Assembly (NCBI RefSeq): GCF_000026545.1
Contig: NC_011601.1
From: Escherichia coli O127:H6 str. E2348/69
Lineage (GTDB): Bacteria; Pseudomonadota; Gammaproteobacteria; Enterobacterales; Enterobacteriaceae
Strand: one strand, 5' to 3'
DNA: 64,000 nt
Part shown: one piece after another, positions 7,496-10,909 of the stretch
Layout: every line of letters begins with the position of its first letter
Numbering within the stretch: the stretch's first letter is position 1
The notes under the pieces: model-generated
What the model saw: the letters and a program-made list of their open reading frames with translations, nothing else
Told to the model about the DNA's origin: nothing
The model's database searches: none
Position numbers and translations under genes: made by a program

Positions 7496-8533
7496 ATGTT
7501 TTCCGCATTGCGCCACCGTACCGCTGCCCTGGCGCTCGGCGTATGCTTTATTCTCCCCGTACACGCCTCGTCACCTAAACCTGGCGATTTTGCTAATACC
7601 CAGGCACGACATATTGCTACTTTCTTTCCGGGACGCATGACCGGAACTCCTGCAGAAATGTTATCTGCCGATTATATTCGCCAACAGTTTCAGCAAATGG
7701 GTTATCGCAGTGATATTCGGACATTTAATAGTCGGTATATTTATACCGCCCGCGATAATCGCAAGAGCTGGCATAACGTGACGGGAAGTACGGTGATTGC
7801 CGCTCATGAAGGCAAAGCGCCGCAGCAGATCATCATTATGGCGCATCTGGATACTTACGCCCCGCTGAGCGATGCTGACGCCGATGCCAATCTCGGCGGG
7901 CTAACGTTACAAGGAATGGATGATAACGCCGCAGGTTTAGGTGTCATGCTGGAACTGGCTGAACGCCTGAAAAATACGCCTACCGAGTATGGTATTCGAT
8001 TTGTGGCGACCAGCGGCGAAGAGGAAGGAAAATTAGGCGCTGAGAATTTACTCAAGCGGATGAGTGACACCGAAAAGAAAAATACGCTGCTGGTGATTAA
8101 TCTCGATAACTTAATTGTTGGCGATAAGCTGTATTTCAACAGTGGCGTAAAAACACCTGAAGCAGTAAGGAAATTAACGCGCGACCGGGCGCTGGCAATT
8201 GCCCGCAGCCATGGAATTGCCGCCACCACAAATCCAGGTTTGAATAAAAACTATCCGAAAGGCACCGGGTGTTGTAATGACGCAGAAATATTCGACAAAG
8301 CCGGTATTGCTGTACTTTCGGTGGAAGCGACTAACTGGAATCTTGGCAATAAGGATGGTTATCAGCAACGCGCAAAAACAGCCGCATTCCCTGCAGGAAA
8401 TAGCTGGCATGACGTAAGACTGGATAATCAACAGCATATTGATAAGGCACTTCCTGGAAGAATAGAACGCCGCTGCCGTGATGTTATGCGGATAATGCTA
8501 CCGCTGGTGAAGGAGCTGGCGAAGGCATCTTAA
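7496..8533 (+). CDS. iap: alkaline phosphatase isozyme conversion aminopeptidase
   Basis: 345 aa with signal peptide and M28 peptidase motifs; position after the cysDNC operon. Confidence 0.85.
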   Translation: MFSALRHRTAALALGVCFILPVHASSPKPGDFANTQARHIATFFPGRMTGTPAEMLSADYIRQQFQQMGYRSDIRTFNSRYIYTARDNRKSWHNVTGSTVIAAHEGKAPQQIIIMAHLDTYAPLSDADADANLGGLTLQGMDDNAAGLGVMLELAERLKNTPTEYGIRFVATSGEEEGKLGAENLLKRMSDTEKKNTLLVINLDNLIVGDKLYFNSGVKTPEAVRKLTRDRALAIARSHGIAATTNPGLNKNYPKGTGCCNDAEIFDKAGIAVLSVEATNWNLGNKDGYQQRAKTAAFPAGNSWHDVRLDNQQHIDKALPGRIERRCRDVMRIMLPLVKELAKAS

Positions 8534-8630
8534 TGGGTTTGAAATGATTACTCCCTTGCCTGCAGGAAATCAATGCCACCAGAAACAGAGTATAAAAAAG
8601 GGTGCAGGAGACCAAACCATCACAATTCAG

Positions 8631-8650
8631 TACGCGGGGTTTTACCCCGC
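8631..8650 (-). terminator. GC-rich stem-loop (cgcggggttttaccccgcg) just 3' of the hok-like ORF; candidate hok mRNA 3' terminal structure
   Basis: Perfect 7-bp stem with 5-nt loop, 8 nt downstream of the hok stop codon on the minus strand. Confidence 0.35.
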
Positions 8651-8657
8651 GTGGTGG

Positions 8658-8810
8658 CTACTTCTTCGATTCGTAAGCGAGAACTGCCTTAAACTCCATA
8701 CCACGTTCTCTGATACTCAACTCACACAACGAGTCGCCTACCATCAACGTGAATCCCAGTACTGTACAACACAGTACGATGATTGCCACAAGGGCATATT
8801 TTGTCAGCAT
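8658..8810 (-). CDS. Hok/Gef-family type I toxin (50 aa), HokE/HokA-like
   Basis: Minus-strand ATG at 8808-8810 gives [50 protein letters not shown]; single TM helix plus conserved DSLCE...AVLAYE Hok motif; below the 60-aa ORF-track cutoff. Confidence 0.7.
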
Positions 8811-8814
8811 GTCT

Positions 8815-10150
8815 GTGTAAGTTCACAGAGATATTGCAATTGCCTCCGGATAAGTAAGGGGAGATTGCACTATGCAAATGCAGCATCTGATGGTTGGCTA
8901 TCCTAAGTACTACCAAACGGCCGATTATGCGTTGAGGCTTTCAGTGATGGCTGATATAGCAACAATGAGAATGAAGGCTCTGCACTTCTGGGATAAACAC
9001 GGTATTTCTGCAGCTTCTGAAGCCTTTGGCGTGTCCTGCCGCACGCTTTACTGGTGGCGTCAGTTACTGAACAAGGAAGGACCTGAGGGGCTAATCCCGC
9101 ACAGTAAGGCACCTCTGGTGCGACGAAAAAAACACTGGCATCCCGATGTGCTGAAAGAGATTCGACGCCTCAGGACAGAGCTGCCGAACCTCGGTAAAGA
9201 GCAGATTTTTGTTCGCCTGAAGCCCTGGTGCGAACAGCGCTATCTGGCCTGTCCGAGTGTTTCCACCATCGGCAGAATGATCGCTGCCGCACATGATAAA
9301 ATGCGGATGATACCTGTGCGTCTGGGATCGCGGGGGAAGGCACTGCTTGTCAAAAAGCGGTCTGCCAAACCCCGCAGGCCAAAGCACTACCGCCCGGTAA
9401 AGACAGGTGAGCTCATTGGGATGGACGCCATTGAGCTCAGAATGGGCGAACTGCGTCGCTATGTCATCACCATGATCGACGAATGCAGCAATTACGCGCT
9501 GGCGCTGGCTGTGCCGTCACTCAACAGTGATATCGTCAATCACTTCTTCAGCCGCGCAGCCCGGTTGTTCCCGGTCGGTATCAGCCAGATAATCACAGAT
9601 AACGGAAAAGAGTTCCTGGGAAACTTCGACAAAACGCTGCAGGAAGCCGCTATCAAACACCTCTGGACCTATCCCTACACGCCAAAAATGAACGCTATCT
9701 GTGAACGTTTTAACCGGACGTTAAGAGAGCAGTTTATTGAATTTAATGAGATTTTACTCTTTGAAGATCTGGCGCTATTTAACCAGAAGCTGGCGGAATA
9801 TCTGGTGCTGTATAACAGCAAAAGACCCCACAAGGCGCTCGCACTAATGACGCCCGTGGAATATATTTTAAAAGAGAATAAAAATTGCAATATGTGGTGG
9901 ACCCATACAATGTCTTGCCTCCTTGCAAAGAAGAGACTAACATCCGAATTGCTTAGGTTCGAACGTAGGCCTCAGGTTGATAGAAATATCGCCTGGGGCT
10001 TTTGTCCATCTGGAACCTCGCGAATGCTTAACGCCAGACAGCCTCAAGCACCCAACGCCATTCTATACCTGTTAATTTTCCCTGCGATGTTCACCTTTAA
10101 ATGCCGGAATGCTGCTCGCAAAATAAAAACGCCCCATCATTTCTGACAGA
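8815..10150 (+). mobile_element. insertion sequence (boundaries approximate; terminal inverted repeats not confidently identified)
   Basis: Transposase gene in a locus that is otherwise K-12-collinear; left end must lie between the hok start (8810) and tnp start (8872). Confidence 0.4.
8872..10146 (+). CDS. DDE (rve integrase-core) transposase with N-terminal HTH; IS481-family-like single-ORF transposase; C-terminal ~90 aa may be read-through
   Basis: 424-aa ORF with HTH (GVSCRTLYWWRQ) followed by rve motifs (ITDNGKEF, NSKRPHKAL); sits where the cas genes are in K-12. Confidence 0.7.
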   Translation: MQMQHLMVGYPKYYQTADYALRLSVMADIATMRMKALHFWDKHGISAASEAFGVSCRTLYWWRQLLNKEGPEGLIPHSKAPLVRRKKHWHPDVLKEIRRLRTELPNLGKEQIFVRLKPWCEQRYLACPSVSTIGRMIAAAHDKMRMIPVRLGSRGKALLVKKRSAKPRRPKHYRPVKTGELIGMDAIELRMGELRRYVITMIDECSNYALALAVPSLNSDIVNHFFSRAARLFPVGISQIITDNGKEFLGNFDKTLQEAAIKHLWTYPYTPKMNAICERFNRTLREQFIEFNEILLFEDLALFNQKLAEYLVLYNSKRPHKALALMTPVEYILKENKNCNMWWTHTMSCLLAKKRLTSELLRFERRPQVDRNIAWGFCPSGTSRMLNARQPQAPNAILYLLIFPAMFTFKCRNAARKIKTPHHF

Positions 10151-10174
10151 GGCGTTTAATTTATCCGGCAATAT

Positions 10175-10909
10175 TTACCCTTCGTGTAATCCACATTCCC
10201 TTTTTAAGCCAAAGAAACGCGTTTCTTCTTCCGCCATGCCGGGTTCCCATTTACGGGTTGTATGGGTATCGCCCACCGATAAATATCCTTCATCCCATAA
10301 TGGGTGATATTTCAGGCCATGTTTTTGCAGGTACTGATAAATAGTTCGGTTATCCCAGTCGATAATCGGCAGCACTTTAAATACGCCACGCTGAATTGCC
10401 AGCACCGGTAAATTGGCGCGACTGCCGGATTGTTCACGGCGCAGGCCAGCAAACCAGGTTTGCGCATTCAGTTCTTTCAGCGCCCGGTTCATCGGTTCGA
10501 CTTTGTTGATGTCATTGTACTTTTCAATGCCTTCAACGCCCTGCTCCCACAGTTTGCCGTAGCGTGCTTCCTGCCAGGCGGCGCTTTCGGTAGCACGATA
10601 CACTTTCAGGTTGAGCTTGAGTTTGTCCGTTAACTCGTCAATAAAGCGGTAGGTTTCCGGGAACAGATAGCCGGTATCGGTGAGGATCACTGGAATATCC
10701 GGGCGAATCTGATTCACCAGATGCAGACTCACCGCCGCCTGAATGCCAAAGCTGGAAGAAAGTACATATTCACCGGGCAGATTATCCAGCGCCCAGGCTA
10801 CGCGGCCTTCAGCGTCCAGTTTTTCCAGTTGGGCGTTAGTTTCCGCCAGCGCCAGAATCCGGTCTACCTTTGGCAGTTCGTTCAGGGCGTTTAGATCGAG
10901 TTTGGACAT
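10175..10909 (-). CDS. cysH: phosphoadenosine phosphosulfate (PAPS) reductase
   Basis: 244 aa [27 protein letters not shown]... ending ...ECGLHEG; start taken at the internal Met of track ORF 10175..11062. Confidence 0.9.

Follow-up and report, generated by a model that had tools for sequence, protein, structure and literature searches.

The 64,000-nucleotide stretch of Escherichia coli O127:H6 str. E2348/69 considered here (contig NC_011601.1; hereafter the window) contains, between iap and cysH, the chromosomal type I toxin–antitoxin locus hokX/sokX of this enteropathogenic E. coli (EPEC) strain. The toxin open reading frame (ORF) is not contiguous with its leader and promoter: a 1,095-bp insertion sequence (IS) of the IS481 family separates the Shine–Dalgarno sequence from the hok start codon. 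The hok control region is displaced by 1.1 kb, not absent, and the antitoxin side of the locus is intact. The fullest explanation of these features, and very probably the correct one, is a split hokX/sokX locus in which hok would be silent and SokX still produced, brought about by a clade of IS that targets promoters in a fixed register. The unexpected result is this last component, a promoter-register targeting biased toward the promoters of antitoxins.

The boundaries of the element are defined by comparison with an IS-free strain, ESBLEC_HM24, in which the same iap–hok–cysH region spans 542 bp. The empty site reads ...CAGCATGTCT/TGCCTCC..., and the base-by-base comparison gives ...TTTTGTCAGCATGTCT/TGCCTCCCTGCAAAG.... 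Homology to ESBLEC_HM24 ends on the left at position 8814 and restarts on the right at 9910. The sequence ATGTCT flanks the IS on both sides as a 6-bp target duplication (8809–8814, which shares the AT of the hok start codon, and 9910–9915), and the element therefore comprises positions 8815–9909, oriented on the plus strand. Its terminal inverted repeats are ~26 bp long and imperfect, carry TTGCAA, and include a perfect 11-bp core at 8831–8841 and 9883–9893.

The original prediction for this region, made from the letters alone, held that a divergent transposase begins only 61 bp from the hok start codon, where mok and sok would normally lie. The spacing is exact. The hok ATG begins at 8810 on the minus strand and the transposase ATG at 8872, and the 61 nt between them (8811–8871) comprise the final 4 nt of the duplication (8811–8814) and the leftmost 57 nt of the IS (8815–8871). 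The interval is also free of mok and sok, as proposed, since the sole Rfam “sok” match within 8400–10400 lies at 9904–10053 on the minus strand. The suggested alignment with an intact locus places the break in homology at 8814/8815, which is the left end of the IS and only 4 nt from the hok ATG rather than well upstream of it. The empty-site comparison thus bears out that the IS severs hok from all of its upstream requirements. The prediction erred in taking the mok/sok control sequences to be missing; they are instead intact beyond the IS, at 9910–10065.

The IS has integrated, with its 6-bp duplication, between the hok Shine–Dalgarno sequence and the hok ATG, leaving the hok ORF and the 3′ fold-back element on its left. 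The ORF (8658–8810, minus strand, 50 amino acids) is intact, and its product is a Hok/Gef protein (Pfam PF01848, HOK_GEF; E = 5.7e-10, 39.1 bits against a cutoff of 22). The RefSeq protein WP_000956458.1 is common to E2348/69 and the IS-free strain. The 3′ untranslated part of the hok mRNA occupies 8594–8657 on the minus strand, as mapped from the reconstructed mRNA and its minimum free energy (MFE) fold, and contains a stem-loop (8628–8657) and the fold-back inhibitory (fbi) box GCACCC (8600–8605), which is followed by a T-run.

Intact to the right of the IS are, for hok, the promoter, the tac end of the mRNA, the Sok target, the leader ORF, and the Shine–Dalgarno sequence and, for the antitoxin, the sok promoter and the SokX gene. 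The Rfam model RF01794 “sok”, which in fact represents the leader of the hok mRNA and reaches from its 5′ end as far as the hok start codon, matches 9904–10053 with 104.6 bits (gathering score 59, E = 3.6e-24). The detached leader itself spans 9910–10053 on the minus strand, and the reconstruction places within it the tac end (10040–10053), the Sok target (9951–10009), the leader-ORF ATG (9941–9943), and the Shine–Dalgarno sequence GGAGG (9918–9922). On the plus strand, the K-12 noncoding RNA sokX (b4701) maps to 9951–10009 with 4 mismatches, which identifies the intact SokX antisense RNA gene, the antitoxin; it folds into a stem-loop between a 5′ tail and a U-rich tail (z = −3.1). Because the annotated 5′ end of K-12 sokX maps to 9951, 7 nt past a −10 box, the position of the sok promoter is fixed at 9915–9943 on the plus strand (−35 TTGCCT at 9915–9920, 17-nt spacer, −10 TAACAT at 9938–9943). 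The last three bases of this −10 box are the reverse complement of the leader-ORF ATG. For hok, the hexamer TAGAAT at 10060–10065 on the minus strand, read from the sequence and given no flag by the promoter scan, is the probable −10 box; it precedes by 6 nt the mRNA 5′ end given by the Rfam model.

The hok mRNA as it existed before insertion was reconstructed by deleting the IS and one copy of the duplication. Its 5′ end corresponds to 10053, with the Sok target at nt 45–103, the Shine–Dalgarno sequence GGAGG at nt 132–136, and the hok ATG at nt 143. A leader ORF of 12 codons (MLVSSLQGGKTC) ends in a TGA that overlaps the hok start, ATGCTGA, at hok codon 2. The 3′ GCACCC box is complementary to a 5′ GGGUGC, and in the MFE fold nt 1–6 pair with 348–353 and nt 9–14 with 340–345, while the hok Shine–Dalgarno sequence is sequestered. 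These predicted features are the tac/fbi hallmarks of hok mRNAs and belong to the reconstructed mRNA only, as in E2348/69 the IS keeps tac and fbi apart. hokX lacks the canonical mok ATG present in hokC, R1-type, and prophage loci, and a long mok frame co-terminating with hok is not found there. P2-type hok loci likewise lack a mok ATG. The frame at 8722–8916 on the minus strand, which the original prediction regarded as mok-like, does exist as an ORF; its upstream part is IS sequence and its start codon is absent from the reconstructed intact locus, so that the frame is not mok but an artefact created by the left end of the IS. Insertion has joined the mok-equivalent leader ORF to antisense sequence of the IS (9779–9943, minus strand, 54 amino acids).

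The anatomy of the locus points to the following outcome. Since it has been stripped of its promoter, ribosome-binding site, and translational coupling, hok is most likely silenced, while SokX is most likely still made from its own promoter. RNA from the hok promoter would now run antisense into the transposase gene at its 3′ end.

The transposase ORF (8872–10146, plus strand) encodes the single transposase of the IS, an rve/IS481-type DDE enzyme with an N-terminal helix-turn-helix (HTH) (Pfam rve, rve_3, HTH_32/28). The NCBIfam profile transpos_IS481 matches amino acids 33–331 over profile positions 2–283 of 284 with 220.8 bits, against a curated cutoff of 224, and the Prokaryotic Genome Annotation Pipeline (PGAP) gives the label “IS481 family transposase” to IS copies that have a stop codon. 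The copy at hokX has none within the element: 346 codons are encoded by the IS (8872–9909), and the frame continues for 78 codons past it, crossing the sok promoter, SokX, and the hok promoter before it ends at 10146, at the cysH terminator. It is for lack of an internal stop codon that PGAP annotates 8872–9906 as “missing C-terminus”. At sites with a −35 box of the form TTGAnn, the TGA of the box stops the transposase ORF at 348 amino acids; at TTGCnn sites such as hokX, the frame reads on.

The 1,095-bp unit recurs at many other sites, and its copies were collected from complete genomes, metagenomes, and viral contigs, together with those of a relative ~80% identical in protein, which NCBI names the ISKpn28 family. 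The IS or this relative abuts Hok ORFs of at least eight subtypes, and seven further Hok ORFs pass Pfam. The hok targets include plasmid R1-type, plasmid repA-linked, P2-like prophage, Gef/HokD-like prophage, and hokD loci. The distance from the hok ATG to the IS varies from 4 to 16 nt across hok subtypes, and the position of insertion is identical. The IS also adjoins ldr/rdlD and dinQ/agrA. In E. coli 2015C-3163 and MB06101, beside bcsG, an identical IS lies 14 nt upstream of the Ldr ATG with a duplication of CTGTGT, and RdlD (Rfam, 83.7 bits) begins 41 nt past the IS end. In E. coli EC12 (gor–dinQ–ars), an identical IS lies directly upstream of the −35 box of the AgrA promoter in the dinQ/agrAB locus, as checked against the K-12 annotation. 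In two IMG/VR prophage contigs (L114 and L118), ISKpn28-type copies lie directly upstream of, and co-oriented with, STnc100 (Rfam, 104–108 bits), the Rfam model of which starts 12 nt past the IS end and may include promoter sequence. The annotated or Rfam 5′ ends of SokX, RdlD, and AgrA are found 42, 41, and 42 nt past the IS end, all co-oriented with the transposase, and the targets are therefore real promoters.

Older copies are also known. Approximately 1,100 E. coli records carry copies of 93–94% identity, which occupy two fixed sites: the chromosomal interval between galF and yegH (L004) and, as a 1,085-bp degenerate copy, a position beside iss on ColV-type plasmids (L005); neither has a clean duplication. 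Many further copies of the IS or ISKpn28 (L052, L054, L055, L062, L065, L066, L116, and others) combine a left flank of the hok type with an unrelated right flank and are without a duplication, a pattern suggestive of recombination or deletion between copies carried by plasmids and prophages. A scan of one genome per species encountered the IS only in fragmented contigs of E. albertii, a result that informs its host range and not its target sites.

A target rule emerges from the collected sites. The 6-bp duplication is verified at 22 unique sites, and 21 such sites enter the count of TTG register given below. Junctions take the form NNNNCT-IS-NNNNCT-TG..., in which the last T of the duplication and the next five bases constitute a −35-like hexamer (TTGCCT, TTGACT, TTGCAA, and others), followed 16–18 nt later by a −10-like hexamer. 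The duplication falls at −41 to −36 of sigma-70-type promoters, its last T being the first T of the −35 box, and the IS inserts 5 nt upstream of that box in a single orientation at every site with the TTG in register. The TTG is in register at 18 of the 21 unique duplication-verified sites and, when sok sites are set aside, at 7 of 10, against a background of 1.7%. A −10-like hexamer, defined by A at position 2, T at position 6, and at least four of six matches, is present at a spacer of 16–18 in 12 of 13 non-sok TTG sites, whereas any other spacer class reaches at most 4 of 13. Composition-preserving shuffles (20,000 trials) average 1.26 and never exceed 7, and the rate of such hexamers at 2,173 control TTG sites in the window is 3.4%.

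Insertion at hokX itself has occurred repeatedly. In 5,426 complete E. coli genomes the hok–sok junction is uninterrupted in 4,182 and holds the IS in 35. The IS is identical over 1095/1095 positions in E2348/69 (iap–hok), an O103:H2 strain (cas3–hok), and strain E2 (CRISPR–IS421–hok). The flanks in these three backgrounds diverge by 4–10%, from 14 nt on the right and 37 nt on the left outward. Because the IS is 100% identical while its flanks differ to this extent, the three hokX insertions are, on sequence grounds, independent hits at the same nucleotide. The left junction is also the same in the type strain of E. albertii, where 120 nt of flank contain 8 differences.

Register and orientation are established statistically, and the means of recognition is proposed conditionally. 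The IS and ISKpn28 integrate in one orientation at −41/−36 of sigma-70-type promoters, with the constitutive promoters of antitoxin small RNAs (Sok, RdlD, AgrA) as the commonest targets. The transposase may read the promoter sequence directly, or it may be attracted by promoter DNA that is occupied or bent by RNA polymerase. Targeting guided by RNA polymerase would favor strong constitutive promoters such as those of antitoxin RNAs. A promoter-like layout in the IS’s own ends, which could serve as a cue for target choice, was sought by eye and nothing convincing was seen. After insertion, selection would favor events that disarm the toxin while sparing the antitoxin. Such selection surely adds to the toxin–antitoxin enrichment, because insertion at −41 of the sok promoter removes the translation signals of the toxin and leaves the antitoxin unharmed. 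The evidence leans modestly toward an IS481 clade, comprising the IS and ISKpn28, that homes in one orientation to −41/−36 and prefers antitoxin promoters, with recognition perhaps through bound RNA polymerase. The same modest preference extends to the joint reading, in which each insertion disarms a toxin, the antitoxin is kept, and a TTGA in the −35 box supplies the transposase with its stop codon. To our knowledge, no bacterial IS has been described that reads promoter architecture in this sense, with the −35 box, spacer, and −10 box all in register and the orientation of the element fixed. Literature searches on IS481 and hok, on target specificity in the IS481 family, and on IS481 and albertii returned nothing relevant, ISfinder entries being outside their scope, and a 2025 preprint on Hok diversity does not mention this IS.

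A toxin that has been rewired rather than silenced is conceivable, with hok expressed from an outward promoter at the IS left end, as the original prediction offered as an alternative, or by read-through. The hok ORF is intact, and no terminator-like site is found on the minus strand inside the IS, which in principle would let transcripts that start at the hok promoter (~10053) extend as far as hok. The strict promoter scan nevertheless finds nothing on the IS minus strand, and a relaxed scan of that strand yields three weak 8/12 matches, which is the background rate of the window (2.7 per kb). The strict scan also failed to flag the genuine sok and hok promoters, and its negative result is for that reason weak on its own; inspection by eye for a junction promoter likewise disclosed nothing convincing. 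The 40 nt that precede the hok ATG are IS sequence with no Shine–Dalgarno sequence at a usable distance, and the leader ORF needed for translational coupling now terminates inside the IS. Continued expression of hok is accordingly considered very unlikely. The 35 insertions at hokX might, in turn, descend from one ancestral event spread by homologous recombination, as the target duplication is the same in all IS-bearing hokX genomes and the left flanks of E2348/69 and the O103:H2 strain are nearly identical (2 mismatches in 215 nt). Such a descent is unlikely given that divergent flanks, beginning so close to the element, surround perfectly identical copies, that the genomic contexts of the three insertions differ, and that the E. 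albertii type strain shares the left junction despite the differences in its flank.

A further alternative to targeting is that the IS inserts essentially at random and that its recurrence at toxin–antitoxin loci comes purely from selection. Insertions that kill a toxin and spare its antitoxin are expected to be neutral or beneficial, and toxin–antitoxin loci are far over-represented among the sites relative to ordinary promoters. Selection cannot, however, explain a single-nucleotide register in which the −35 box opens with the final T of the duplication, nor an orientation fixed at all TTG-register sites, nor identical positions in hok subtypes whose ATG lies anywhere from 4 to 16 nt from the IS. 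The same −35/−10 register is also seen at sites without a nearby toxin (L008, L027, L058, L067, L144). Random insertion with selection as the sole cause is thus highly improbable. Several points still weigh against the preferred account of a silenced hok, an active SokX, and promoter-register targeting. The silencing of hok and the continued synthesis of SokX are read off the anatomy of the locus alone, and the hok ORF could still be carried on a long RNA that starts at the hok promoter and reads through the IS. The sample consists of ~30 unique sites from assemblies and metagenomes, not of de novo transposition events, and post-insertion selection has contributed to it. Three of the 21 verified sites have no TTG, and ISKpn28 has been found within the mgrB coding region under colistin selection (PMC6101004); in view of these exceptions, target specificity is strong but not absolute.

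The window is 100% identical to the E2348/69 chromosome, and the remaining features of the locus are as follows. The left boundary gene, iap, occupies 7496–8533 on the plus strand (ORF list and RefSeq annotation). The right boundary is the cysH terminator hairpin (10132–10151, minus strand; terminator scan and annotation), beyond which cysH extends from 10175 on the minus strand (RefSeq annotation). The iap–cysH interval (window positions 8534–10175) contains no CRISPR array and no cas genes, which is the B2-type arrangement without type I-E CRISPR-Cas. Two sub-threshold Rfam matches, sR19 (8883–8956) and ctRNA_p42d (10118–10159, which is the cysH terminator hairpin), were rejected as chance matches.

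The split hokX locus is a natural case of a toxin uncoupled from an antitoxin that is still present. If the targeting is as proposed, the IS would serve as a natural reporter of active promoters, and its preference would explain both the disarming of addiction modules on plasmids and prophages and the breaking of the iap–cysH CRISPR region at exactly the nucleotide of hokX insertion. It would also offer a handle for site-directed integration beside promoters. It is also of consequence for ISKpn28, a common element of Klebsiella resistance plasmids.

The arrangement at hokX is already known at map level, and the locus represents an ordinary kind of event. Almendros and colleagues (2014; PMC3903273) mapped the iap–cysH region across E. 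coli. In their scheme, arrangement B comprises strains without cas-E genes that retain a hok sok system, and a derivative, arrangement C, has an “uncharacterized IS, ISu” in the cysH-proximal intergenic region, at the end distal to cysH; copies of ISu were proposed to mediate the replacement that yielded the K-12-type locus without hok. The text consulted does not characterize the IS, the exact hok/sok junction, or a target rule; E2348/69 would belong to arrangement C. A survey from 2025 finds hok and sokX beside cysH in 90% of urinary isolates (PMC12736100). In the cas3–cysH spacer of K-12 (L003, 1440–1520; L136, 1100–1160), only the sok side is kept, and homology starts at CATGTCTTGCC. This break falls within 1 nt of the IS insertion point, and the TATACA before it resembles the right tip of the IS, CATACA; no further IS sequence is recognizable at the break. 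The K-12 break fits either the proposed ISu-mediated replacement or a second element that would have the same target preference.

A known relative of the hokX element is ISKpn28, an IS481-family element of Klebsiella and E. coli plasmids. The two share a length of 1,095 bp, terminal sequences, a 6-bp duplication, the lack of a stop codon within the element, and the target register. They differ in that the hokX element is only ~75% identical in DNA and ~80% in protein, and by this comparison it is an IS related to, and distinct from, ISKpn28. On the KPC plasmid pKPC-fusion-1 (L147), ISKpn28 splits an R1-type hok/sok locus (Hok MKLPRNTLLG...) in the same register. The duplication there, TCTCCT, is the hok Shine–Dalgarno sequence on the other strand, and the RefSeq Hok-family coding sequence is only 117 nt long (~38 amino acids). 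ISKpn28 has been noted to co-localize with FlmC, a mok homologue, with no interpretation offered (PMC12248084, preprint).

The original prediction likened hokX to the K-12 loci inactivated by IS, and the analogy holds for the outcome and fails for the geometry. In K-12 hokC, as here, a chromosomal hok/sok homologue with an intact hok ORF is disabled by an IS. There, IS186A lies 19 bp downstream (3′) of the hokC/mokC stop, at which mokC and hokC co-terminate, and the fold-back region is removed; at hokX, the IS lies 4 nt 5′ of the ATG and the 5′ control region is detached. The families differ as well, IS4-like at hokC and IS481 at hokX. Pedersen and Gerdes reportedly described in 1999 the K-12 pairs hokA/IS150 and hokE/IS186. 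With R1 hok/sok and K-12 hokC/sokC, hokX shares a toxin of the Hok/Gef family, an antisense Sok RNA transcribed from a separate promoter within the leader, the tac/fbi pairing, and a sequestered Shine–Dalgarno sequence. Those loci have a long mok that co-terminates with hok, whereas hokX has a 12-codon leader ORF and is split. Integration beside a transcription signal that is specific in orientation and position and directed to “safe” sites is familiar from yeast Ty1 and Ty3, which home to the upstream border of RNA polymerase III genes, and from bacterial elements with defined extragenic target motifs such as IS1397, which targets REP sequences. The hokX element differs from these in that its target is a bacterial promoter of the sigma-70 type.

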